NCBI RefSeq assembly: GCF_055900595.2
Contig: NZ_CM148325.1
DNA: 64,000 nucleotides
Direction: 5' to 3' (one strand)
Below, in pieces: positions 10,418-26,250 of this stretch (positions are counted from its first letter, which is position 1; each line of letters starts with the position of its first letter). The notes beneath the pieces are model-generated. The model was given only the letters and a program-made list of their open reading frames with translations. It made no database searches and had not been told where the DNA came from. The position numbers and the translations under genes are program-made.

Positions 10418-10921
10418 TTACGCAGTGCGGCGGAAATTGACCAGTTCTGGTTGCGCAATGCGCAAATAATCCGCGGTTTTCAAAATAACGGATTTATCCA
10501 GCATGCCTGCATTGAAGGCGATTTCATCAAATCGTTCGAAGAGTAGGGGGTCGGCAACCAGTTTGAGTTTTGGATGGAAGCTGAAAGGGGGGATCGCGCC
10601 GAAGACACAGCCTGTGAGTTCATCGACTTCCGCCGGGCTGGCCAACGAAGCGCGTAATCCGCCTATATGGATGGCAAGTTGGCTCAGATCGGCCTGTTGA
10701 TCGGCAGCGAGGATCGCCAGAACATGTTGATTTACGCCATTGCCTTTGACTTTACATACCAGTGCCTTAGCCCCCTGGCCTAAAGCGGTGCCACGAATTT
10801 CTGACACCGCTTCGCATTTACCTACCGCCTCATGGGTAACGACGCGGAAGTCAGCACCTTCTTGTGATAATAAAGCGATTAACCGCTGATGCGTCACGCT
10901 TCCTTTAGCCATTTCAGTCAT
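10418..10921 (-). CDS. yeaK: YbaK/ProX-like aminoacyl-tRNA deacylase domain protein
   Basis: 167-aa ORF; family signature and synteny. Confidence 0.85.
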   Translation of the reverse strand: MTEMAKGSVTHQRLIALLSQEGADFRVVTHEAVGKCEAVSEIRGTALGQGAKALVCKVKGNGVNQHVLAILAADQQADLSQLAIHIGGLRASLASPAEVDELTGCVFGAIPPFSFHPKLKLVADPLLFERFDEIAFNAGMLDKSVILKTADYLRIAQPELVNFRRTA

Positions 10922-10963
10922 TTCACGCTCCTGAGATTACAAGCAAACAACCACAGAAGATTA

Positions 10964-12454
10964 TCATGAACGGCTGTTTTTGTTCTGCTTATTGACATAT
11001 AAACGCTCATCGGAAGCTTTATACGCATCATGTAACGTATCGTTTTCTTTCATCGCATAAATACCGGAAGAGAAGCCGATCTCTTTCTGCGGCGCGATAT
11101 GTTGCAGACGTTTTTCGATACGTTCAGGCAGTTGTGCTGCAATTTGCGGCGTCGAATCGACAAGAATGATGCAGAATTCATCGCCACCGAGTCGGATGGC
11201 ATAATCACTTTTACGAATCGACTGTTTAATCGCCTGAGCTAATAACGTAATCGCTAAATCTCCTTCCTGATGACCGAGCGTGTCATTTATTTGCTTTAAC
11301 TTGTCCATGTCAATTGCAATAAACATCACCGAAGAACCAGATTGCACCAGTTTTTGCAACCGCTGCTCCAGTTCAGGGGTTAATATTTTGCGATTATACA
11401 GTCCGGTCATCGCATCACTAATATTTTCTCGCGACACATTTTGGTATAAACGGAAGTGCATCCGCACCATATTCAGCAAAATTAACGCCGTCAAAATCCA
11501 GAACAGAACGCTTTTCCACGAAGATGTGATAAAGTAAAGAATATCAATGGATAACGATACACGAATGCCGCCCGGTAAGTCATGGACGTAACTGACATAC
11601 TGGAACAGATTATCTTCGCTCTGGTTGATGATAATGTCGCGCCCAGAATCTGTATCGGTTAGCGTGACATTGAGAAAACGCCAGAGGAGAGGGCGGTCAT
11701 GCGTGTAAAAGATATTCCGCAGATTGTTTTTGTTAATATCCAGCAGCACAATTCCTTTTAGCTGCCCTGCAACATACACTGGCGTCAGCAAACTCATCAC
11801 GTTCTGTTTAGTACGCTGATCCTGGTAAATGCTCGATAATACGGTGCGACCGGTAAAAACTTTTTCAATATCTTTGCGATCGATGCCAATGCTTCCTGAC
11901 TGCAGGAAGGACCAGTTATTCATCGCAAAGTACTCAACATTAACCGGCTCATAAAAATAGACATAGAGGTCATTGAGATCGAGATAATAGTGAAATTTCT
12001 CTTCGGCCATTCCAAGACCTGAACCATAATCATCCTGGTGGCGGTTGCCTTCCACTGCCTGATCAAAAGCGGGTAATAGTGCTGCAGCTTCCACAATTGT
12101 GTCGCATTCAGTGGATGCGGTTTGTAGTGTACCGTGTAAGCCCGTGTACTTATGGGCAGTCAGGTTTAAGCCATGGGTATTATTGGCAGACTCAAAAGCC
12201 TCGCAGATGGTACGCCGCTGTTCTGGCGACACTTCCGACTGCTCAGCAGCGAGAGCGCGCATCACATGCGCGGCAATACTCTGATTTTGATACTTGTCAT
12301 AAAGAAAGGAGGAATCTGCTCTCTGCACGATATAGCGCAGATAGGCACTCATTGCTCTGTCGCTGGCGACAAGTTCAAAAATAAGGAAGGAAGATGTCAG
12401 CACAATGACACTTGCGGCGATAAAATGCCGGAGCATTCTATGGTGCAATTTCAT
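10964..12454 (-). CDS. dgcJ: Membrane-anchored diguanylate cyclase
   Basis: ORF track 10964-12634 trimmed to MKLHHRMLRHF (496 aa as recalled); intact RLGGDEF motif. Confidence 0.88.
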   Translation of the reverse strand: MKLHHRMLRHFIAASVIVLTSSFLIFELVASDRAMSAYLRYIVQRADSSFLYDKYQNQSIAAHVMRALAAEQSEVSPEQRRTICEAFESANNTHGLNLTAHKYTGLHGTLQTASTECDTIVEAAALLPAFDQAVEGNRHQDDYGSGLGMAEEKFHYYLDLNDLYVYFYEPVNVEYFAMNNWSFLQSGSIGIDRKDIEKVFTGRTVLSSIYQDQRTKQNVMSLLTPVYVAGQLKGIVLLDINKNNLRNIFYTHDRPLLWRFLNVTLTDTDSGRDIIINQSEDNLFQYVSYVHDLPGGIRVSLSIDILYFITSSWKSVLFWILTALILLNMVRMHFRLYQNVSRENISDAMTGLYNRKILTPELEQRLQKLVQSGSSVMFIAIDMDKLKQINDTLGHQEGDLAITLLAQAIKQSIRKSDYAIRLGGDEFCIILVDSTPQIAAQLPERIEKRLQHIAPQKEIGFSSGIYAMKENDTLHDAYKASDERLYVNKQNKNSRS

Positions 12455-12634
12455 GATAAATGGCACTCCTTCGGTTAGTGAAACGAGAAAACCAGATAAA
12501 GTTCGATTGCGGCCTGGCACAGGGGCGCTAATTATACTCATCTCTGCGCCGCTGGGGAGGGGAAATTTAGGGGTAATAGTAATAAATTGTATGCAAAAGC
12601 CACGCAAAAAGCATGGCTCTGAATATTTTTGCAC

Positions 12635-14083
12635 TTAAATATGATGAATAATCACTTTGTTGCCCCCCTCGCTTTTCGCTTCGCGTAAGGCTTTATCTGC
12701 TTCCGTCATGACAAGCGAGATATTACGCGTGTCACCCGTTGAAAAAACCGTGCCAATACTGATGGTCATTTGTTCAGGAACATCATATCTGTTACTAAAA
12801 CCGGTCAGGAGTTCGACATTTTTACGCATACGTTCCGCAATGATTTTTGCCTGGGCACTATTGAGTTCGGTAAATAGCAAGCCAAACACCTCACCCTCCA
12901 GTCGCGCTAAAATATCATCGGGGCGGATGCTTTGCTGGATAATATCGACAATTGAAACCAGCACTTTATCACCCACACGATGTCCCCATTGGGCATTGAT
13001 GCGCTTGAACTGATTAATATCAACCAGCATGACACAAAAGTCCTTAACAACAGGTCGCGACAATAATGACTCTACGCTGTTGAAAAAGTAGCGCCGATTA
13101 TAAATATTGGTCAGTACATCATGAACTGCCAGTTTGCTGGAGAGTTGCAGTTCCTGAAAAATGTTATAAATCAGAAAAGACACAACAAACAGTTTACTGG
13201 AAACTTCAATCCCGCGACTGATATACCAGATGGTGTAATTATACTCATCCAGAGTCAGTAGAAGTAAGTTGCAGCATAGCGATGCCAGACATAATAATGC
13301 TATTAACGGCCATAGTTCGCTGGCTAATCGTGTACGCATGATAATAAAGAACAGTAAAAATGCCCACAGACAAACCAATATTTTTGTATAGTTGATTCCC
13401 CAGGTCGCAGTATGGTTGTCCGGACAGTAATCGACGACATACAAAGAATAGTCAGCGTTATAACTGCTCAGATTGTGTGCCAGAAGGGGAAATACTAAAA
13501 AAGGGATCAGCGTCAGTAACAGGATCCCCGTTTTTTTCTTATTGTTGTTAAGAATGTTGTCTTTACCATAACAAAAGAGCGCCAGCGAGGTTAAACAAAT
13601 AAAACTGAGTTGGCGGAAAATATAGAAAATAGAAACATCATTCGACTTTGTCTGGATCAGTGTACTGCCGTTGATTGGTTTATGGATAATTACAATGGTT
13701 TCAACTAAATAGATAAGGCCACTTAAAAATGCAAGGCTTAAAATGAGTGTTGGTAAAATTTGTTTGTTAGTGAAATATTTCATCAACATGAAAAGAAAAA
13801 TGACGGCGTTAAGGAAGAACAAAGCCACAACAACCATCAGGTAATTCATCTGTGGAATGAGTTTTACATTCGTGTTTTCGTTATATAAGGTGGTGATGCA
13901 AAATAAAATTAACGTCAGCAATAAGCTGAAAATAAAAAAGCCTTGAGCTTTTAATTTTTGTGTACCCATAGAAACCATAAAAAGGAGAGCAATGTGAGTG
14001 CTGGATTTTATTGATGGCAGAGATATATGGTTTTGACCAAGATCAATTTTCGGTAACGATGCAAAATAATTAAAGAATAACAC
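12635..14083 (-). CDS. dgcI: Degenerate GGDEF-domain membrane protein
   Basis: 482-aa ORF with many TM helices; signature motif reads EGEVF rather than GGDEF; true start may be a few codons upstream. Confidence 0.82.
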   Translation of the reverse strand: MLFFNYFASLPKIDLGQNHISLPSIKSSTHIALLFMVSMGTQKLKAQGFFIFSLLLTLILFCITTLYNENTNVKLIPQMNYLMVVVALFFLNAVIFLFMLMKYFTNKQILPTLILSLAFLSGLIYLVETIVIIHKPINGSTLIQTKSNDVSIFYIFRQLSFICLTSLALFCYGKDNILNNNKKKTGILLLTLIPFLVFPLLAHNLSSYNADYSLYVVDYCPDNHTATWGINYTKILVCLWAFLLFFIIMRTRLASELWPLIALLCLASLCCNLLLLTLDEYNYTIWYISRGIEVSSKLFVVSFLIYNIFQELQLSSKLAVHDVLTNIYNRRYFFNSVESLLSRPVVKDFCVMLVDINQFKRINAQWGHRVGDKVLVSIVDIIQQSIRPDDILARLEGEVFGLLFTELNSAQAKIIAERMRKNVELLTGFSNRYDVPEQMTISIGTVFSTGDTRNISLVMTEADKALREAKSEGGNKVIIHHI

Positions 14084-14255
14084 GGGTAAATACGTGTTGA
14101 ACGAAGCATTTTTCCGAATGATTGTTTTCTGGAACTAAATTGTGTAAAGGTTGTGCTGTTATATTTAAAGCGATTGTAAGTTAATGTATATAATAAATGA
14201 GATGATTTACAGTGTGCTAAAAAACAGCCAGGCGACGATGACCCGGCTGATAGTT

Positions 14256-15551
<1,296 letters not shown>

Positions 15552-15651
15552 CTACATTTGCCAACTGTTTGCTACGCCTGTGTTGCCGCTTCTCTGGCCC
15601 ACGGTTCGCTGTCGTTGTAGGCCCGGTAGCATGCGTACCGGGCCATGGTTG

Positions 15652-17586
15652 TTAAGACGATTTACGTACGCGCAAATACCATTCGCACAGTAAACGCACC
15701 TGTTTACGGGTGTAGCCTTTTTCCATCATACGGTCGACAAAATCGTCGTGTTTCTTCTGCTCGTCGGTTGACGTTTTGGCGTTAAACGAAATAACCGGCA
15801 ACAGCTCCTCGGTATTAGAGAACATTTTCTTCTCAATAACCGTGCGCAGTTTTTCATAGCTGGTCCAGTTCGGATTGCGTCCGCTGTTATTCGCTCTGGC
15901 GCGCAGTACGAAGTTGACAATCTCGTTGCGGAAATCTTTTGGATTACTGATCCCCGCCGGTTTCTCAATTTTCTCCAGCTCAGCGTTGAGAGATTCGCGG
16001 TCAAATAGCTGCCCGGTATCCGGGTCGCGATACTCCTGATCCTGAATCCAGAAATCTGCATACGTGACATAACGGTCAAAAATGTTTTGTCCATATTCAG
16101 AATAGGATTCAAGATACGCAGTCTGAATCTCTTTACCGATAAACTCGGCATATTTCGGAATCAAGTAACCTTTCAGGAACTCGAGATAACGCTCAGCCTG
16201 CTCCTGAGGGAACTGCTCGCGCTCGATCTGCTGTTCCAGGACGTAGAACAGATGAACAGGGTTTGCTGCCACTTCCACGTGGTCGAAGTTGAACACGCGA
16301 GAGAGGATCTTAAACGCAAAACGCGTGGACAGACCGTTCATCCCTTCATCAACGCCTGCGTAGTCACGATATTCCTGATACGACTTGGCTTTCGGATCGG
16401 TGTCTTTCAGACTTTCGCCATCATAAACCCGCATCTTCGAATAAATGCTGGAGTTTTCCGGCTCTTTCAGACGCGAAAGAATGGAAAAACGAGACAGCGT
16501 TTCCAGCGTGCCAGGTGCGCAGGGGGCGTGAGTCAGTTCACTGTGATTAAGCAATTTCTCGTAGATTTTGATCTCTTCGGAAATACGCAAGCAATATGGC
16601 ACCTTCACGATATAAACACGATCGAGGAAGGCTTCGTTGTTCTTGTTATTACGGAAAGTGACCCATTCGGATTCGTTCGAATGGGCGAGAATAATCCCGT
16701 TAAACGGCAGGGCGGAGATACCTTCCGTCCCGTTGTAGTTACCTTCCTGAGTGGCGGTTAACAGGGGATGCAGCACTTTAATCGGGGCTTTAAACATCTC
16801 GACAAACTCCATGATCCCCTGGTTGGCGCGGCATAGTGCACCGGAATATCCGTAGGCGTCCGGATCGTTCTGCGCGTAGTGTTCGAGTTTACGGATATCG
16901 ACTTTCCCTACCAGCGCTGAGATGTCCTGGTTGTTCTCATCGCCAGGTTCCGTTTTGGCGATAGCAATTTGTTGCAGAATTGACGGCCAGACCTTTACCA
17001 CCCGGAACTTAGTAATATCGCCACCAAATTCATGCAGGCGTTTTGCTGCCCACGGCGACATGATGGTGCCAAGATAGCGTCGAGGAATGCCATACTCTTT
17101 TTCCAGAATCTGCGCATCTTCTTGCGGATTGAAAAGACAGAACGGATGATCGTTGACCGGGCTCCGCTCACCGTTAGCGCTTAATACATAGATCGGCACG
17201 AGCTGCATTAATGATTTCAGTCGCTCAGCAAGCGATGATTTACCCCCACCCACAGGCCCCAGCAGATACAGGATTTGTTTCTTCTCCTCCAGCCCCTGAG
17301 CCGCGTGTTTCAGATAAGAGACAATCTGTTCAATCGCGTCTTCCATGCCGTAAAACTCTTCAAAGGCTGGGTAACGTGCAATGACCCGGTTAGAAAAGAG
17401 TCGAGAAAGTCTGGGTTCCTGGGCTGTATCGACCATGACAGGCTCACCGATAGCCATCAATAGCCGCTCAGCCGCGTTGGCATAAGCACTGCGATCTTGC
17501 CGACAAGTGGTAAGAAACTCCTGCAGTGTGAACTCTTCGTTCTTGGCAGCTTCATATCGCTGGCGATAGTGATCGAATATATTCAT
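15652..17586 (-). CDS. yeaG: PrkA-family serine protein kinase
   Basis: 644-aa ORF with Walker A GPVGGGKSS; length and synteny match. Confidence 0.93.
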   Translation of the reverse strand: MNIFDHYRQRYEAAKNEEFTLQEFLTTCRQDRSAYANAAERLLMAIGEPVMVDTAQEPRLSRLFSNRVIARYPAFEEFYGMEDAIEQIVSYLKHAAQGLEEKKQILYLLGPVGGGKSSLAERLKSLMQLVPIYVLSANGERSPVNDHPFCLFNPQEDAQILEKEYGIPRRYLGTIMSPWAAKRLHEFGGDITKFRVVKVWPSILQQIAIAKTEPGDENNQDISALVGKVDIRKLEHYAQNDPDAYGYSGALCRANQGIMEFVEMFKAPIKVLHPLLTATQEGNYNGTEGISALPFNGIILAHSNESEWVTFRNNKNNEAFLDRVYIVKVPYCLRISEEIKIYEKLLNHSELTHAPCAPGTLETLSRFSILSRLKEPENSSIYSKMRVYDGESLKDTDPKAKSYQEYRDYAGVDEGMNGLSTRFAFKILSRVFNFDHVEVAANPVHLFYVLEQQIEREQFPQEQAERYLEFLKGYLIPKYAEFIGKEIQTAYLESYSEYGQNIFDRYVTYADFWIQDQEYRDPDTGQLFDRESLNAELEKIEKPAGISNPKDFRNEIVNFVLRARANNSGRNPNWTSYEKLRTVIEKKMFSNTEELLPVISFNAKTSTDEQKKHDDFVDRMMEKGYTRKQVRLLCEWYLRVRKSS

Positions 17587-18021
17587 GGTATGCCGTCCTT
17601 TCGTTTTTTAGCACAGGTTAAGAGCCGTTCATATGAATAGTAGAGGCTCCCGGAAGAGGTAAACTGAACGACGTCTCTTGCTAAAACACAGCAACTCTCA
17701 TGCCATTTTATCGACGATGAGAACAACGTGCCCGGTGATACACCTTCAAAATTAAGCGTAGATGGCAAATGGAAAACTTGCCTGCACGGCTTTCTTAATT
17801 TCAATGGCATATCAACAACTCATCCATAAAATTTGCATAATTAATGTAAAGACCAGGGTCGCCAGTAACGCGTAATTCATTTGGCTGTAAGCGTGGTGTC
17901 ATCTGCGTCAGGAAAATTAAACAGTTACTTTAAAAAATGAAAACGTAAAAAGGTTGGGTTTCGATGTATTGACGGGTAAACTTTGTCGCCCGCTAAACAT
18001 TTGTTTAAGGAATGATTAATT

Positions 18022-18768
18022 GTGACCAAACTCAAACTTCTGGCACTTGGAGTGCTTATCGCAACGTCTGCAGGCGTAGCGCACGCTGAAGGTAAATTTT
18101 CCCTGGGCGCAGGCGTAGGTGTCGTTGAACACCCATATAAAGATTACGATACCGATGTTTACCCAGTACCGGTAATCAACTATGAAGGCGATAACTTCTG
18201 GTTCCGTGGCTTAGGTGGTGGTTACTACCTGTGGAATGACGCAACGGATAAACTTTCAATTACCGCTTACTGGTCGCCGCTTTACTTCAAAGCTAAAGAC
18301 AGTGGCGATCACCAAATGCGTCACCTGGATGACCGTAAGAGCACCATGATGGCTGGTCTGTCTTATGCTCACTTTACCCAGTACGGTTACCTGCGTACCA
18401 CCCTGGCTGGCGATACCCTGGATAACAGCAACGGCATCGTCTGGGATATGGCCTGGTTGTATCGTTACACCAACGGTGGCCTGACCGTGACTCCGGGTAT
18501 TGGTGTGCAGTGGAACAGCGAAAACCAGAACGAATACTATTATGGCGTATCGCGTAAAGAGTCTGCGCGCAGCGGTCTGCGTGGCTATAACCCGAATGAC
18601 AGCTGGAACCCTTACCTGGAGCTAAGTGCCAGCTACAACTTCCTCGGCGACTGGAGTGTTTACGGCACCGCACGCTACACTCGTCTGTCTGATGAAGTTA
18701 CTGACAGCCCAATGGTGGATAAATCCTGGACTGGCCTGATTTCTACCGGGATCACCTACAAATTCTGA
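18022..18768 (+). CDS. mipA: MltA-interacting outer-membrane protein (OmpV/MipA family)
   Basis: 248-aa ORF with signal peptide and C-terminal aromatic residue (TGITYKF). Confidence 0.9.
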   Translation: MTKLKLLALGVLIATSAGVAHAEGKFSLGAGVGVVEHPYKDYDTDVYPVPVINYEGDNFWFRGLGGGYYLWNDATDKLSITAYWSPLYFKAKDSGDHQMRHLDDRKSTMMAGLSYAHFTQYGYLRTTLAGDTLDNSNGIVWDMAWLYRYTNGGLTVTPGIGVQWNSENQNEYYYGVSRKESARSGLRGYNPNDSWNPYLELSASYNFLGDWSVYGTARYTRLSDEVTDSPMVDKSWTGLISTGITYKF

Positions 18769-18803
18769 TAATGCATCTTTCCAGGGCATTTTGTGCATAA
18801 AAA

Positions 18804-18826
18804 CAGGGCGTAATGCCCTGTTTTGC
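18804..18826 (+). terminator. Rho-independent terminator after mipA
   Basis: Hairpin cagggcgtaatgccctg followed by TTTT. Confidence 0.5.
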
Positions 18827-18857
18827 ATTACGGTGGTGCAATACCTGGGAGGAAACA

Positions 18858-19712
18858 ATGCAACAAAAAATGATTCAATTTAGTGGCGATGTCTCACTGC
18901 CAGCCATAGGGCAGGGAACATGGTATATGGGCGAAGATGCCAGTCAGCGTAAAACAGAAGTTGCTGCACTACGCGCGGGCATTGAACTCGGTTTAACCCT
19001 CATTGATACCGCCGAAATGTATGCCGATGGTGGTGCCGAAAAGGTGGTTGGGGAAGCATTAACCGGTCTGCGTGAGAACGTCTTTCTCGTCTCTAAAGTC
19101 TATCCGTGGAATGCTGGCGGGCAAAAAGCGATAAATGCATGCGAAGCCAGTTTACGCCGTCTCAATACTGATTATCTCGATCTCTACCTATTACACTGGT
19201 CTGGCAGTTTCGCTCTCGAAGAGACTGTCGCAGCGATGGAAAAATTGATCGCCCAGGGAAAAATCCGCCGCTGGGGCGTTTCTAACCTTGATTATGCCGA
19301 TATGCAGGAACTCTGGCAGCTGCCGGGGGGAAATCAGTGTGCCACTAATCAGGTGCTTTACCATCTCGGTTCACGAGGGATTGAGTACGATCTACTTCCC
19401 TGGTGCCAGAAACAGCAGATGCCGGTGATGGCTTACAGTCCATTAGCCCAGGCCGGGCGGTTGCGCAATGGACTGTTAAAAAATGCGGTAGTCAACGAAA
19501 TTGCACATGCTCACAATATCAGTGCGGCACAAGTATTGTTGGCGTGGGTAATCAGCCATCAGGGTGTGATGGCGATTCCAAAAGCGGCAACTGTCGCACA
19601 TGTCCAACAAAATGCGGCTGTGCTTGAGGTTGAACTTTCGTCAGCGGAATTAGTTATGCTGGATAAAGCGTATCCGGCACCAAAAGGAAAAACTGCGCTG
19701 GATATGGTGTGA
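18858..19712 (+). CDS. yeaE: Aldo-keto reductase
   Basis: ORF track 18813-19712 trimmed to MQQKMIQFSG (284 aa as recalled). Confidence 0.88.
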   Translation: MQQKMIQFSGDVSLPAIGQGTWYMGEDASQRKTEVAALRAGIELGLTLIDTAEMYADGGAEKVVGEALTGLRENVFLVSKVYPWNAGGQKAINACEASLRRLNTDYLDLYLLHWSGSFALEETVAAMEKLIAQGKIRRWGVSNLDYADMQELWQLPGGNQCATNQVLYHLGSRGIEYDLLPWCQKQQMPVMAYSPLAQAGRLRNGLLKNAVVNEIAHAHNISAAQVLLAWVISHQGVMAIPKAATVAHVQQNAAVLEVELSSAELVMLDKAYPAPKGKTALDMV

Positions 19713-21738: not shown

Positions 21739-22067
21739 CTATTTGTTAGTGAATAAAAGGTTGCCTGTAAAATTACAAAAACCTTACGCAGCGTCAAGCG
21801 GAATCGTGTCAATCATTGCGACAAATCAATCCTGTGCCTAAGCATTATGCGACTGACTCGCCTCACTCTTCCTTTGGGCTTGAGACCACATGGGGTCGGC
21901 GCCCCGAATTTTAAAGGGCAATTACGATAAAAATGTGATTTTCATCACGATTTAGGTGCAGCTATTTCGTCGAGATCAAGTTTAGGACAAAATTTTGCCA
22001 GTTGGTGTTAATGTTTTGTTAGAATCAGTCGCGTAATGTGAGCACGATTAAAGTGAGATGTGAGCAA

Positions 22068-22481
22068 ATGGCTAATAAACCTTCGGCAGAAGAACTGAAA
22101 AAAAATTTGTCCGAGATGCAGTTCTACGTGACGCAGAATCATGGGACAGAGCCGCCATTTACGGGTCGTTTACTGCATAACAAGCGTGACGGCGTATATC
22201 ACTGTTTGATCTGCGATGCCCCGCTGTTTCATTCCCAAACCAAGTATGATTCCGGCTGTGGCTGGCCCAGTTTCTACGAACCGGTGAGTGAAGAATCCAT
22301 TCGTTATATCAAAGACTTGTCACATGGAATGCAGCGCATAGAAATTCGTTGCGGTAACTGTGATGCCCATCTGGGGCATGTCTTCCCCGACGGGCCGCAG
22401 CCAACGGGTGAACGTTATTGTGTTAACTCAGCCTCTTTACGCTTTACCGATGGCGAAAACGGCGAAGAAATCAACGGTTGA
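22068..22481 (+). CDS. msrB: Peptide methionine sulfoxide reductase B
   Basis: ORF track 22038-22481 trimmed to [10 protein letters not shown] (137 aa); two CxxC pairs and catalytic RYCVNSASL. Confidence 0.92.
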
Positions 22482-22522
22482 AAAAACGATTCAGCAACTT
22501 ATTCCACAGGAGCGGAAAAATT

Positions 22523-22795
22523 ATGAATCTTGATGACATTATCAACAGCATGACGCCTGATGTATACCAGCGTTTGTCGACTGCCGTTGAGCTGGGGAAA
22601 TGGCCCGATGGCGTTGCGCTGACCGAGGAACAAAAAGAGAACTGCCTACAGCTGGTGATGCTGTGGCAAGCCCGCCATAATACCGAAGCACAGCATATGA
22701 CAATTGACACACATGGTCAGATGGTTATGAAGAGCAAACAACAGTTAAAAGAAGATTTTGGTATCTCAGCAAAGCCTATTGCCATGTTTAAGTGA
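22523..22795 (+). CDS. yeaC: DUF1315-family protein YeaC
   Basis: ORF track 22478-22795 trimmed to MNLDDIINSM (90 aa); starts just after msrB. Confidence 0.82.
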   Translation: MNLDDIINSMTPDVYQRLSTAVELGKWPDGVALTEEQKENCLQLVMLWQARHNTEAQHMTIDTHGQMVMKSKQQLKEDFGISAKPIAMFK

Positions 22796-22955
22796 ATGAG
22801 TTGTCTAGTATTTAAGCCTGTTATTAAGGGAGGGCAAATAGACTTGTTCGGACGTCGTGTTTTAGCTGCAAGTAGGTTAAATGCAACACTGACAAGTATT
22901 ATCTGGCCTACAATGTCATTGAGGAAATGTAGGCCAGAGATGAATCCAACTAATA

Positions 22956-23597
22956 TTACTCCTGCGTCTCTTCCCAGTCTGCAAGCGTATATAGCGTTGC
23001 CCCAGCTGCTGACATCTCCATAAACGCGTGCGCACTGTCCTGTGGCTGGATATTCACGCCACGACAACCATCGGTAATCACATTAACCTTATAACCTAAC
23101 TGTAACGCGTCCAGCACGGTAAACTTCACGCAATAGTCAGTAGCCAGGCCCATAATGATCAATTCATCGATTTCATGATCGCGTAACCAGTCATCGAGCG
23201 TGGTTTTCTGCCGACGGCCGTTATCAAAAAAGGCACTGTAACTGTCAACTAAAGGATTTTCGCCTTTATGGAACACCGCTGCGATCGCTTTTTGGTTCAG
23301 TAACGGATGTAATTGTGCGCCTTCACTGTTCTGCACACAGTGATCTGGCCAGAAGGTTTGTGGCAAACCGTCGATTTGGCCTGGCGTATAAGGCTCTACA
23401 CCGTGCTGACTGGCAAAACTGCCGTGATTCGCCGGGTGCCAGTCTTGACTGGCGATAACCGCTTCACCGCGTGACTGGCACCAGTCAATCAGGCGGTTAG
23501 CGACATCCACCGTACTGTCACCTTCCGGCACGGCGAGCGCGCCACCAGCACAGAAATCATTTTGTAAATCGACCAGTAACAGGGCGCGAGGGGGCAT
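22956..23597 (-). CDS. pncA: Nicotinamidase/pyrazinamidase
   Basis: ORF track 22956-23615 trimmed to MPPRALLLVDLQNDF (213 aa); isochorismatase-family signature. Confidence 0.92.
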   Translation of the reverse strand: MPPRALLLVDLQNDFCAGGALAVPEGDSTVDVANRLIDWCQSRGEAVIASQDWHPANHGSFASQHGVEPYTPGQIDGLPQTFWPDHCVQNSEGAQLHPLLNQKAIAAVFHKGENPLVDSYSAFFDNGRRQKTTLDDWLRDHEIDELIIMGLATDYCVKFTVLDALQLGYKVNVITDGCRGVNIQPQDSAHAFMEMSAAGATLYTLADWEETQE

Positions 23598-23607
23598 TGC
23601 AGTCTCC

Positions 23608-24624
23608 TTAATCATCCGGCGTCAGTTCGCCGCGCAGGTTTTGGCTCATGGCCTTGCGAATGGTTTCAGTATCCAGTTCCTGGCTAAGCAGGTAATGCAG
23701 TTTGGTTAGCGTGGCTTCTACAGTCATATCTGCACCGCCAATAACGCCGGCATGGGCGAGGGCGTTACCGGTGGCATAACCCCCCATGTTCACTTTACCG
23801 GACATACATTGTGTCAGGTTGACTACCACAATTCCGCGATCGCTGGCTTCTTGTAATTCTTGCAGGAAGGCTTTGTTTTGTGGCGCATTACCCACGCCAT
23901 ATGAGCGCAGAATCAATGCTTTCACCGGTTGGCGCAGAAAATTGCGCACGACGTCAGCAGAAATCCCTGGATAAATCGTCACTACGCCAATTGGTTGTGG
24001 GGTGATTGGATGAACGATCAATTCCCCTTCACCGTGCGGGGCGGGTGGCGTATTCAAACGACGAATATGGATACCTGCTTCCAGTAACGGAGGAAGGTTT
24101 GGAGAGGCAAACGCATCAAAACCATCGGCATGGGCTTTGGTGGTACGGTTGCCACGATAAAGTCGATTATTAAAAAAGAGAGTTACTTCGTTGATAGGAT
24201 AATTCGCCGCAACGTACAACGCATTCAGCAGATTAATTTGTCCGTCAGAGCGTAACTCAGCCAGCGGGATTTGTGACCCTGTCACAATGACCGGTTTACC
24301 GAGATTCTCGAGCATGAACGACAGCGCAGAGGCGGTATACGCCATCGTGTCGGTGCCGTGCAGAATGACAAAACCATCATAGTCGTCATAATGCGCTTTA
24401 ATATCTTCAGCAATATGCTGCCAGTCTTCTGGCGTCATATCTGAAGAGTCCATCAGCGGCGTATATTCATGAATGGTGAAATCTGGCATCTCCGGGCGAT
24501 GGAATTCCGGCATCAGCGCCAGTTGGCGTTGTAGATGACCTGACACCGGAATATAACCCTGCTCGGAACGCTGCATCCCGATGGTCCCGCCCGTGTAGGC
24601 GACGTAAATTGATTTCTTTTGCAT
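23608..24624 (-). CDS. ansA: Cytoplasmic L-asparaginase I
   Basis: 338-aa ORF MQKKSIYVAYTGGTIGM with asparaginase catalytic threonine motif. Confidence 0.95.
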   Translation of the reverse strand: MQKKSIYVAYTGGTIGMQRSEQGYIPVSGHLQRQLALMPEFHRPEMPDFTIHEYTPLMDSSDMTPEDWQHIAEDIKAHYDDYDGFVILHGTDTMAYTASALSFMLENLGKPVIVTGSQIPLAELRSDGQINLLNALYVAANYPINEVTLFFNNRLYRGNRTTKAHADGFDAFASPNLPPLLEAGIHIRRLNTPPAPHGEGELIVHPITPQPIGVVTIYPGISADVVRNFLRQPVKALILRSYGVGNAPQNKAFLQELQEASDRGIVVVNLTQCMSGKVNMGGYATGNALAHAGVIGGADMTVEATLTKLHYLLSQELDTETIRKAMSQNLRGELTPDD

Positions 24625-24755
24625 GATATTGATATGAATGATATCGAAAGAGCAAAAGTATATACGTGAGGGGCAGCGAGCGCACCTGGATACTCTGTGG
24701 ATATGAGAAAAGTCCGGCAGAACGGAGGGATTAGTGTCCCGCCGGAGAAAAGTGG

Positions 24756-25478
24756 TTAATCCTGCAACGCATAGGTTACGGTGGTGACTACGCGTACCGT
24801 TTTATTAATCGCCGTAGGATCATCTTCATCACTGCCACTGGCGAAGATCTGGAACACGCCTTGTGAGGCATCGCTAATTGACCCCACCTGGCTACCTGAG
24901 TCCGTTGCAAATTGTAATGCTGCGTTGCGTGCATCTTTGGTGGCGGCGGCAATCATCTCAGCGCGCAGTGCGCCAATACCATTAAAGCGATAGGCGACTT
25001 TGCTCTCAGCGATAGCGCCCTCCGTAGCGACTTGCAGTTCGTTTAATTTCGCGACGACTTTTTCGACAGCAGCAACATTATGGGTTTTTATCGTCACTGA
25101 CCCGTCTGCGTTATAGCGTGGCATTGTGGGATCATCTTTCAGATAAAAGGAATCTGTTCGCTTGCTTGTCCATTGGCCCAGGGTTATCTCTTTCTCGTTA
25201 ATCCCCTGAGCATTGAGTTCGGCAACAATTTTTTTCTGCGCGTCTTCCAGTTTCGGGAACAGTTCGCCGGGAATATTACCCTTAAAGTTAATCGCAATTG
25301 TTAATTCTGCCGTATCTGCGCGAACTTCTTTTTCAGAAAGCCCACGCACATTTACATAACGGTTATTGGTTTTCAAATGTTTAACACCATCGCCAACAAA
25401 ATAACCACAGGCGCTAATCCCCAGTCCGAGGACGATAGCGGCAATTAAAGAGGGGGCCTTATTCACTGATGACTCCAT
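24756..25478 (-). CDS. SIMPL/DUF541-domain periplasmic protein (YggE-like)
   Basis: 240-aa product MESSVNKAPSLIAAIVLGLGISACGYF...; the ORF-track 389-aa version is an artefactual upstream extension running into the IS200 flank; no counterpart between ansA and sppA in recalled K-12. Confidence 0.75.
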   Translation of the reverse strand: MESSVNKAPSLIAAIVLGLGISACGYFVGDGVKHLKTNNRYVNVRGLSEKEVRADTAELTIAINFKGNIPGELFPKLEDAQKKIVAELNAQGINEKEITLGQWTSKRTDSFYLKDDPTMPRYNADGSVTIKTHNVAAVEKVVAKLNELQVATEGAIAESKVAYRFNGIGALRAEMIAAATKDARNAALQFATDSGSQVGSISDASQGVFQIFASGSDEDDPTAINKTVRVVTTVTYALQD

Positions 25479-25539: not shown

Positions 25540-26250
25540 AGGAGTGTGGCCGACAGCATATCGGCCACATTTTTGTGCACAGAAAACCCCCAGCTAGGCT
25601 GGGGGTTCCGGAAAGCTTTCAGCTTTGAGCCAGTTATTAAAACCCCTTTTGATTTGTTAAAACACCTTGCGGTCTGGCAACTGCAAGTGTCAAACAAGAA
25701 ATCAAAAGGGGGTCCCAATGGGGGACGAAAAGAGCTTAGCGCACACCCGCTGGAACTGTAAATATCACATAGTTTTTGCGCCGAAATACCGAAGACTGGC
25801 GTTTTACGGAGAGAAGCGTAGGGCGATAGGCAGTATTTTGAGAAAGCTGTGTGAGTGGAAAAGCGTACGGATTCTGGAAGCAGAGTGCTGCGCAGATCAT
25901 ATCCATATGCTTGTGGAAATCCCACCCAAAATGAGCGTATCCGGCTTTATGGGATATCTGAAAGGGAAAAGCAGTCTGATGCTTTACGAGCAGTTTGGGG
26001 ATTTGAAATTCAAATACAGAAACAGGGAGTTCTGGTGCCGAGGGTACTATGTCGATACGGTGGGTAAGAACACGGCGAAGATACAGGACTACATAAAGCA
26101 CCAGCTTGAAGAGGATAAAATGGGGGAGCAGTTATCGATTCCATATCCGGGCAGCCCGTTTACGGGCCGTAAGTAACGAAGTTGAATGCAAATGTCAGAT
26201 CGTATGCGCCTGTTAGGGCGCGGCTGGTAACAGAGCCTTACAGGCGCATT
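25540..26250 (+). mobile_element. IS200 (IS200/IS605 family), about 0.7 kb, boundaries approximate
   Basis: Contains tnpA below; left end carries the characteristic perfect hairpin gtggccgacagcatatcggccac and a second stem cccccagctaggctggggg upstream of tnpA. Confidence 0.8.
25718..26176 (+). CDS. tnpA: IS200 Y1 (HuH) transposase TnpA
   Basis: MGDEKSLAHTRWNCKYHIVFAPKYRR...HIHMLVEIPPK...YIKHQLEEDK; HuH motif; near-identical to recalled IS200 TnpA. Confidence 0.92.
   Translation: MGDEKSLAHTRWNCKYHIVFAPKYRRLAFYGEKRRAIGSILRKLCEWKSVRILEAECCADHIHMLVEIPPKMSVSGFMGYLKGKSSLMLYEQFGDLKFKYRNREFWCRGYYVDTVGKNTAKIQDYIKHQLEEDKMGEQLSIPYPGSPFTGRK

Follow-up and report, generated by a model that had tools for sequence, protein, structure and literature searches.

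In the window, i.e., the whole stretch of 64,000 nucleotides analyzed here, the genes yeaC and pncA are direct neighbors, and the ydj cluster of Escherichia coli K-12 is missing between them. We regard it as probable that the window represents the unoccupied allele of a known ydj polymorphism, that its spacer belongs to an old lineage (termed type W) rather than being the product of a deletion, and that the island of other strains resides in a second spacer type (type K).

The DNA belongs to E. coli. Positions 21800-24700 (2.9 kb) are 100% identical to NZ_CP098223.1, the complete genome of E. coli strain Z0117EC0005 (dog, South Korea). The yeaC stop codon ends at 22795 and pncA, located on the minus strand, ends at 22956, which agrees with the initial annotation describing both genes as a convergent pair 160 bp apart. 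The genes and their spacer are as follows:

22523 to 22795, plus strand: yeaC, encoding a DUF1315 protein of 90 amino acids (ORF list; RefSeq annotation of NZ_CP098223.1; 95.6% identity to K-12 YeaC in tblastn)
22796 to 22955, no strand: yeaC-pncA spacer of 160 bp, probably the unoccupied type-W allele of the site that harbors the 9,057-bp ydjLKJIHGFE island in K-12
22956 to 23597, minus strand: pncA, encoding a nicotinamidase/pyrazinamidase of 213 amino acids (ORF list; RefSeq annotation of NZ_CP098223.1; search against K-12 proteins)

The K-12 gene order given in the initial annotation was confirmed by the annotation of NC_000913.3 (pncA, ydjE, ydjF, ydjG, ydjH, ydjI, ydjJ, ydjK, ydjL, yeaC). 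A tblastn search of the 64-kb window with the K-12 proteins did not disclose any orthologue of ydjE to ydjL, affirming that the eight genes are absent between yeaC and pncA; the sole match was the paralogue yeaE (27% identity), and the neighbors yeaC and pncA are intact. When the spacer and its surroundings were scanned, nothing meaningful turned up in the way of promoters, terminators or Rfam families.

To this arrangement a population sample of 5,426 complete E. coli genomes was compared. In 1,091 of them yeaC and pncA are contiguous as in the window, and the central 91 bp of the spacer was found in 1,086 genomes, once per genome and with 95.6-100% identity. The K-12 ydj island is present in 4,336 genomes; 4,260 of these contain it nearly complete, while the remaining 76 keep less than 80% of it. 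The number of genomes without any island match (5,426 - 4,336 = 1,090) is within one of the number of contiguous sites. The empty state (approximately 20%) and the island state (approximately 80%) are essentially mutually exclusive alleles. Insertion sequences (ISVsa5/IS4-like, IS3, IS5-like, IS1) were detected inside the island or truncating it in several E. coli (hits H61, H77, H89, H90). The cluster is decaying in some E. coli lineages, independently of the empty allele.

The absence of ydj in the window is a common, ordinary accessory-gene polymorphism of E. coli, which has been reported previously. Among meat-plant E. coli, the prevalence of ydjI by phylogroup was 96.6% in A, 29.9% in B1, 100% in B2, 50% in C, and 100% in both D and E (PMC9602453, which also describes an association with lactic-acid stress). 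In a pan-genome study, ydjH figures among the 'extended-core' loci for which true deletions are recorded (PMC12595684). The variably present K-12 ydj operon (ydjLKJIHGFE) is identical in locus and in its eight genes to what is missing in the window. Both studies give prevalence only and do not cover the junction, the spacer haplotypes or the empty sites of related Escherichia.

The part of the spacer adjacent to pncA, which lies outside the island, proved to be the most informative one. The initial annotation had described an 11-bp perfect inverted repeat at 22902-22940; the repeat exists, but its end had been set 2 nt too far, the true end being 22938. Together with a segment located next to it, the following features were discerned:

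22902 to 22912, no strand: left arm TCTGGCCTACA of the 11-bp perfect inverted repeat, with a REP-type head GGCCTAC
22913 to 22927, no strand: loop ATGTCATTGAGGAAA of 15 nt, specific to type W (in island-bearing E. coli: ATGCCAGTACAGAAT)
22928 to 22938, no strand: right arm TGTAGGCCAGA of 11 nt, 100% complementary to TCTGGCCTACA
22940 to 22950, no strand (limits ±1-2 nt by alignment): 11-bp segment ATGAATCCAAC, which marks type W and lies outside the island

We aligned the 125 bp immediately preceding the pncA stop of 12 E. coli genomes and of two further genomes, L003 and L006, which belong to a species-representative collection and were deposited as E. coli. In sppA, ansA, pncA and yeaD the latter are only approximately 92% identical to the window, a divergence that corresponds to separate Escherichia species, presumably cryptic clades. 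yeaC and pncA are adjacent in both, separated by 163 bp (L003) and 174 bp (L006). Across approximately 70 bp beside pncA the aligned sequences fall into two types:

Type W, loop ATGTCATTGAGGAAA, 11-bp segment present: the empty E. coli (window, 07_3986, O111:H8, HB-Coli0, E166, C3)
Type K, loop ATGCCAGTACAGAAT, 11-bp segment absent: the island carriers (K-12, SE11, 042, CDC#03-98, BH100, 47258)

The association, read base by base in these 12 E. coli genomes only, is perfect, since 6/6 empty E. coli and L006 exhibit type W and 6/6 island-bearing E. coli and L003 exhibit type K. ATGAATCCAAC itself was present in every empty E. coli sampled as well as in L006, and missing from every island carrier sampled as well as from L003. 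Minor deviations concern the loop, which has a diverged 13-nt form in L006 next to a retained 11-bp segment, two substitutions in the empty L003, and one SNP in 47258. Among the 24 island-bearing genomes listed, the alignment ends at window position 22951 with a single exception (23160). Position 22951 is the site of the 11-bp indel, so that the stop is consistent with the W/K split at the population scale.

As the differences between W and K lie outside the island, the empty allele cannot derive from the island allele by deletion of the island. The simplest reading of the alignments is that the window spacer, being of type W, was never occupied and that the island entered a type-K spacer. Type W would be a distinct old spacer lineage which is also found empty in one related Escherichia species (L006), and the island would sit in the type-K lineage, which is likewise found empty in a second one (L003). 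Within E. coli, the W and K alleles would have replaced each other through homologous recombination in the core genes on either side. The initial annotation had left open whether the junction is a clean deletion or an ancestral state. Its second option gained support from the window spacer, which aligns end to end with that of L006 (approximately 76% identity over 142 bp), and from the old haplotype on the pncA side; its first option did not. The informative non-coli Escherichia amount to these two genomes, E. fergusonii having been left out and the contig of E. albertii being uninformative. In the E. albertii type strain (L004 2128-3701), homology to E. coli does not extend past the pncA stop, where an ORF for a membrane protein of 112 amino acids and an IS-family transposase of 373 amino acids follow before the contig ends ahead of yeaC. 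By its sequence, the transposase appears to be H-repeat/ISAs1-like.

According to the annotation of NC_000913.3, the K-12 ydj block is composed of metabolic, transport and regulator genes only. YdjH is annotated as L-glycero-L-galacto-octuluronate kinase and YdjI as the matching aldolase; the ydjLKJIHGFE cluster encodes the catabolism of a long-chain sugar acid. With a GC content of 46.4%, compared to 50.7% in the flanks, the block shares the deviant base composition of a classical genomic island, but it lacks the integrase or transposase, the tRNA target and the flanking direct repeats of such elements: neither an integrase nor a transposase or tRNA is annotated at the block, and no significant repeats were found at its borders.

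The interval was also inspected in 80 species-representative loci, in 71 of which the gene arrangement on the pncA side could be read. yeaC and pncA are adjacent in 30/71 loci, including those of Salmonella enterica subsp. diarizonae, Kosakonia, Phytobacter, Rahnella and 1/5 Serratia loci. In another 32/71 the two genes are separated by 0.4-3.2 kb of inserted DNA, in most cases a GH18 chitinase-like gene, and in 7/71 the ydj cluster directly follows pncA and is itself followed by the chitinase gene:

Loci L017, L022, L023, L024, L028, L029 and L039 (approximately 10680 to 19430 in most): ydj cluster 3′ of pncA, in Citrobacter sp. FP75, C. youngae, C. gillenii, Raoultella planticola, Klebsiella spallanzanii, K. 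michiganensis and Yokenella

The GH18 gene, which encodes a secreted chitinase-like protein of 430 amino acids (10775-12067 in L009, the same position in approximately 30 other loci), was encountered in Enterobacter, Lelliottia, Leclercia, Klebsiella pneumoniae, Buttiauxella, Cedecea and Serratia; Escherichia possesses neither the gene nor a detectable remnant. In two Kluyvera loci (L043, L048; 10640-18560), pncA and yeaC lie approximately 7.7-7.9 kb apart, and the chitinase gene makes up the first kilobase of this interval.

Between Citrobacter and Klebsiella/Raoultella, the concatenated Ydj proteins are 93-97% identical, while SppA, AnsA and PncA together reach only approximately 86%. Because of this discrepancy, the sequences indicate that the ydj cluster was probably transferred between genera without mobility genes. 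Together with the island GC content below that of the flanks and the empty sites in related genera, this movement of the cluster supports its acquisition.

Within E. coli, distances between flanks follow the strain background and not the island state. C3 (empty) and SE11 (island) differ at one position in the 1,994 bp left of the junction. On its right side, 20 differing sites lie within approximately 1.3 kb (pncA-ansA), followed by one in the next 790 bp. The pattern looks like a recombination patch and would fit a replacement of alleles via homologous recombination in the flanking core genes. On the basis of this patch, of the occurrence of both spacer types in E. coli and in related species, and of the closely related ydj clusters of Citrobacter and Klebsiella, we tentatively consider a further possibility, namely that the interval is a long-lived exchange site. 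In that case, the W and K lineages would persist across Escherichia species, a 9-kb cassette would be passed between genera and among E. coli lineages purely by flanking homology, and the split of roughly 20/80 would be kept by niche-dependent selection on ydj. Like the integration hot spots and genome-plasticity regions of E. coli, the pncA-yeaC interval holds varied cargo between the same core genes. Unlike those, it has no tRNA, integrase or flanking direct repeats, and exchange would probably proceed through core-gene homology.

The term 'ancestral' may however apply within E. coli only. In this scenario, an ancestor shared by Escherichia, Citrobacter and Klebsiella already carried ydj at this site, and both empty spacer types go back to old deletions. 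We consider such an ancient loss rather unlikely, though several data speak for it. The cluster lies at the same place, 3′ of pncA, in the Citrobacter, Raoultella, Klebsiella and Yokenella loci, a stretch of approximately 125 bp ahead of ydjL is conserved between the genera, and the E. coli Ydj proteins are approximately 90% identical to those of all these genera, a value equal to that of the core proteins of E. coli and Citrobacter. Because of the position next to pncA and this equality, ydj in E. coli would be compatible with vertical descent combined with old losses. On the other hand, both informative related Escherichia species as well as Salmonella diarizonae are empty, the island GC content is 4 points under that of the flanks, and the cluster clearly moves between genera, as the Citrobacter and Klebsiella/Raoultella proteins illustrate. 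Furthermore, ydj lies in the other genera between pncA and the GH18 chitinase gene, which Escherichia lacks, and no remnant of ydj or of the chitinase gene is detectable in any Escherichia spacer; the search for GH18 remnants in these spacers and in the K-12 ydjL-yeaC intergenic region gave no match below E of approximately 1. The E. coli ancestor may have carried the island or been polymorphic, and B1 may have regained the empty allele by recombination, since the island is as diverse as the core (Ydj proteins 98.6-99.2% identical within E. coli, core 98.7-99.2%) and, according to the literature, near-universal in phylogroups A, B2, D and E.

That this strain or its close relatives lost ydjE to ydjL in a recent clean deletion, with the palindrome or short border repeats as possible mediators, is in our opinion very improbable. 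It would agree with the fact that the flanks of the window are closest to those of 042 and 47258, both of which carry the island; strain 042, which we take to belong to phylogroup D, represents a background where the ydj cluster is usually present. The decay of the island in the 76 genomes that retain less than 80% of it, several of them with IS elements, would also be in line with a deletion. Yet, the same junction and spacer recur in 1,086 genomes of several backgrounds, and the flank outside the island is of type W in both its loop and the 11-bp indel, a type shared with an empty related species. Moreover, the spacer contains DNA that K-12 does not have at this site. In a direct alignment to K-12, homology is lost a few bases past the yeaC stop (approximately 22803) and comes back at 22887, 15 nt before the hairpin, which leaves the following segment:

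22803 to 22886, no strand: spacer core of approximately 84 bp without direct counterpart at either K-12 border, orthologous to the L006 spacer

Compared with both strands of the 9.1-kb K-12 island, this core gave local matches at chance level only. Up to approximately 22836 it is weakly homologous to the K-12 yeaC 3′ hairpin region, a relationship that becomes apparent through L003 as bridging sequence. The spacer of L003 matches both K-12 borders, on the yeaC side with a short hairpin after yeaC, and on the pncA side; it puts the K-12 island at 9,057 bp, in place of approximately 40 bp of L003-like spacer. Hence, the junction of the window is not simply the left border of K-12 joined to the right one without extra bases, as approximately 84 bp (22803-22886) are additional. 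The two K-12 island borders share only one direct and one inverted 9-mer, and 394/2,000 shuffles, i.e., 20%, reached the same level. With 84 bp devoid of a direct K-12 counterpart and border repeats not exceeding chance, the clean deletion proposed in the initial annotation was not borne out.

That the cluster was merely collapsed out of or moved from the stretch by an assembly or scanning artefact, an idea in favor of which nothing was found, is practically negligible, considering the complete genome identical to the window over 2.9 kb, the 1,091 complete genomes with this arrangement and the 1,090 genomes without an island match, which agree with them within one.

The palindrome had been suspected to mark the borders of the ydj cluster, which turned out to be wrong. 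K-12 contains a single copy between pncA and ydjE, approximately 36 bp outside the island edge, and no second copy at the yeaC-side border. The comparison suggests that the palindrome is neither an island border nor a scar and belongs to the 3′ flank of pncA in both alleles; the hairpin is also found in K-12, L003 and L006. The inverted repeat is more than a chance occurrence. The 64-kb window contains the pattern GGCCTAC N5-30 GTAGGCC a single time, compared with 0/100 shuffles, and the folding energy of the 51-nt hairpin is about -19 kcal/mol for both strands (z approximately -5). Seven core pairs of the stem are invariant, two vary on one side with a wobble pair being kept, and the loop is free to vary. 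Owing to this invariant stem core, a covariation test of the hairpin did not reveal any compensatory changes. The hairpin does not resemble an intrinsic terminator, having a loop of 15 nt and a U tract on neither strand, and a terminator scan of 22400-23200 gave no terminator-like site. Searching the spacer against Rfam 15 yielded only a sub-threshold match to a microRNA precursor (22.5 bits versus 72 required), which is due to the hairpin.

With REP/BIME elements, the arms of the window share the facing heads GGCCTAC and GTAGGCC, the short linker and the location between convergent genes. Lelliottia, three Enterobacter species and Escherichia sp. ESNIH1 have a complete head-to-head REP pair with the same heads in the corresponding place after pncA, and full pairs with these heads also occur at other positions in many loci of other genera. 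Unlike these full pairs, Escherichia keeps 9-11 nt per head and lacks the REP bodies of approximately 25 nt. The flanks of the arms form REP stems (imperfect palindromic units of approximately 35 nt) in L010, L011, L014, L042 and L057, but not in the window, K-12, L003 and L006, and the annotation of this part of NC_000913.3 lists no repeat feature at the palindrome. By sequence, the palindrome thus resembles the head-to-head GGCCTAC...GTAGGCC core of a REP pair that lacks the REP bodies in Escherichia. It would most likely fold into a stem-loop where the convergent pncA and yeaC (or ydjE) transcripts end, and act as a barrier or stabilizer rather than as an intrinsic terminator. By analogy to the established function of REP elements, our best guess is a REP-derived stem-loop that may mark and protect the convergent mRNA 3′ ends.

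Two other peculiarities of the neighborhood were noticed. The 3′ half of yeaC (22561-22726) exhibits approximately 10 SNPs in 170 bp, none of which occurs in any of the 11 other E. coli compared. At most two of them match either related Escherichia genome, while msrB just upstream is identical to that of 042, and only 13-15 genomes match the yeaC 3′ region at 99% or more. A lineage outside the sample may have contributed this segment as a small recombination patch. Between ansA and sppA, a gap of only 166 bp in K-12, the window contains a gene for a SIMPL-domain protein (24756-25466, minus strand) and an IS200/IS605 tnpA gene (25718-26176, plus strand). This full arrangement is present in 8/5,426 genomes, and the SIMPL gene alone resides at the site in other strains, including O157:H7 and CDC#03-98. 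The query matches 17 places in the chromosome of the window strain, which suggests that it contains many IS200 copies.

For the strain, the empty site means that it should be unable to use the long-chain sugar acid degraded by the ydj pathway, and the short yeaC-pncA spacer should not be annotated as a lesion. Beyond such bookkeeping the finding matters little, the presence or absence of ydj being already known. What is added by the spacer haplotype structure and the mobility of ydj between genera is small: the spacer is probably an old unoccupied lineage and not the result of a deletion, the palindrome appears to be a hairpin of REP heads in the 3′ flank of pncA instead of a scar, the site varies among Enterobacterales, and ydj was probably passed on between their genera without mobility genes.
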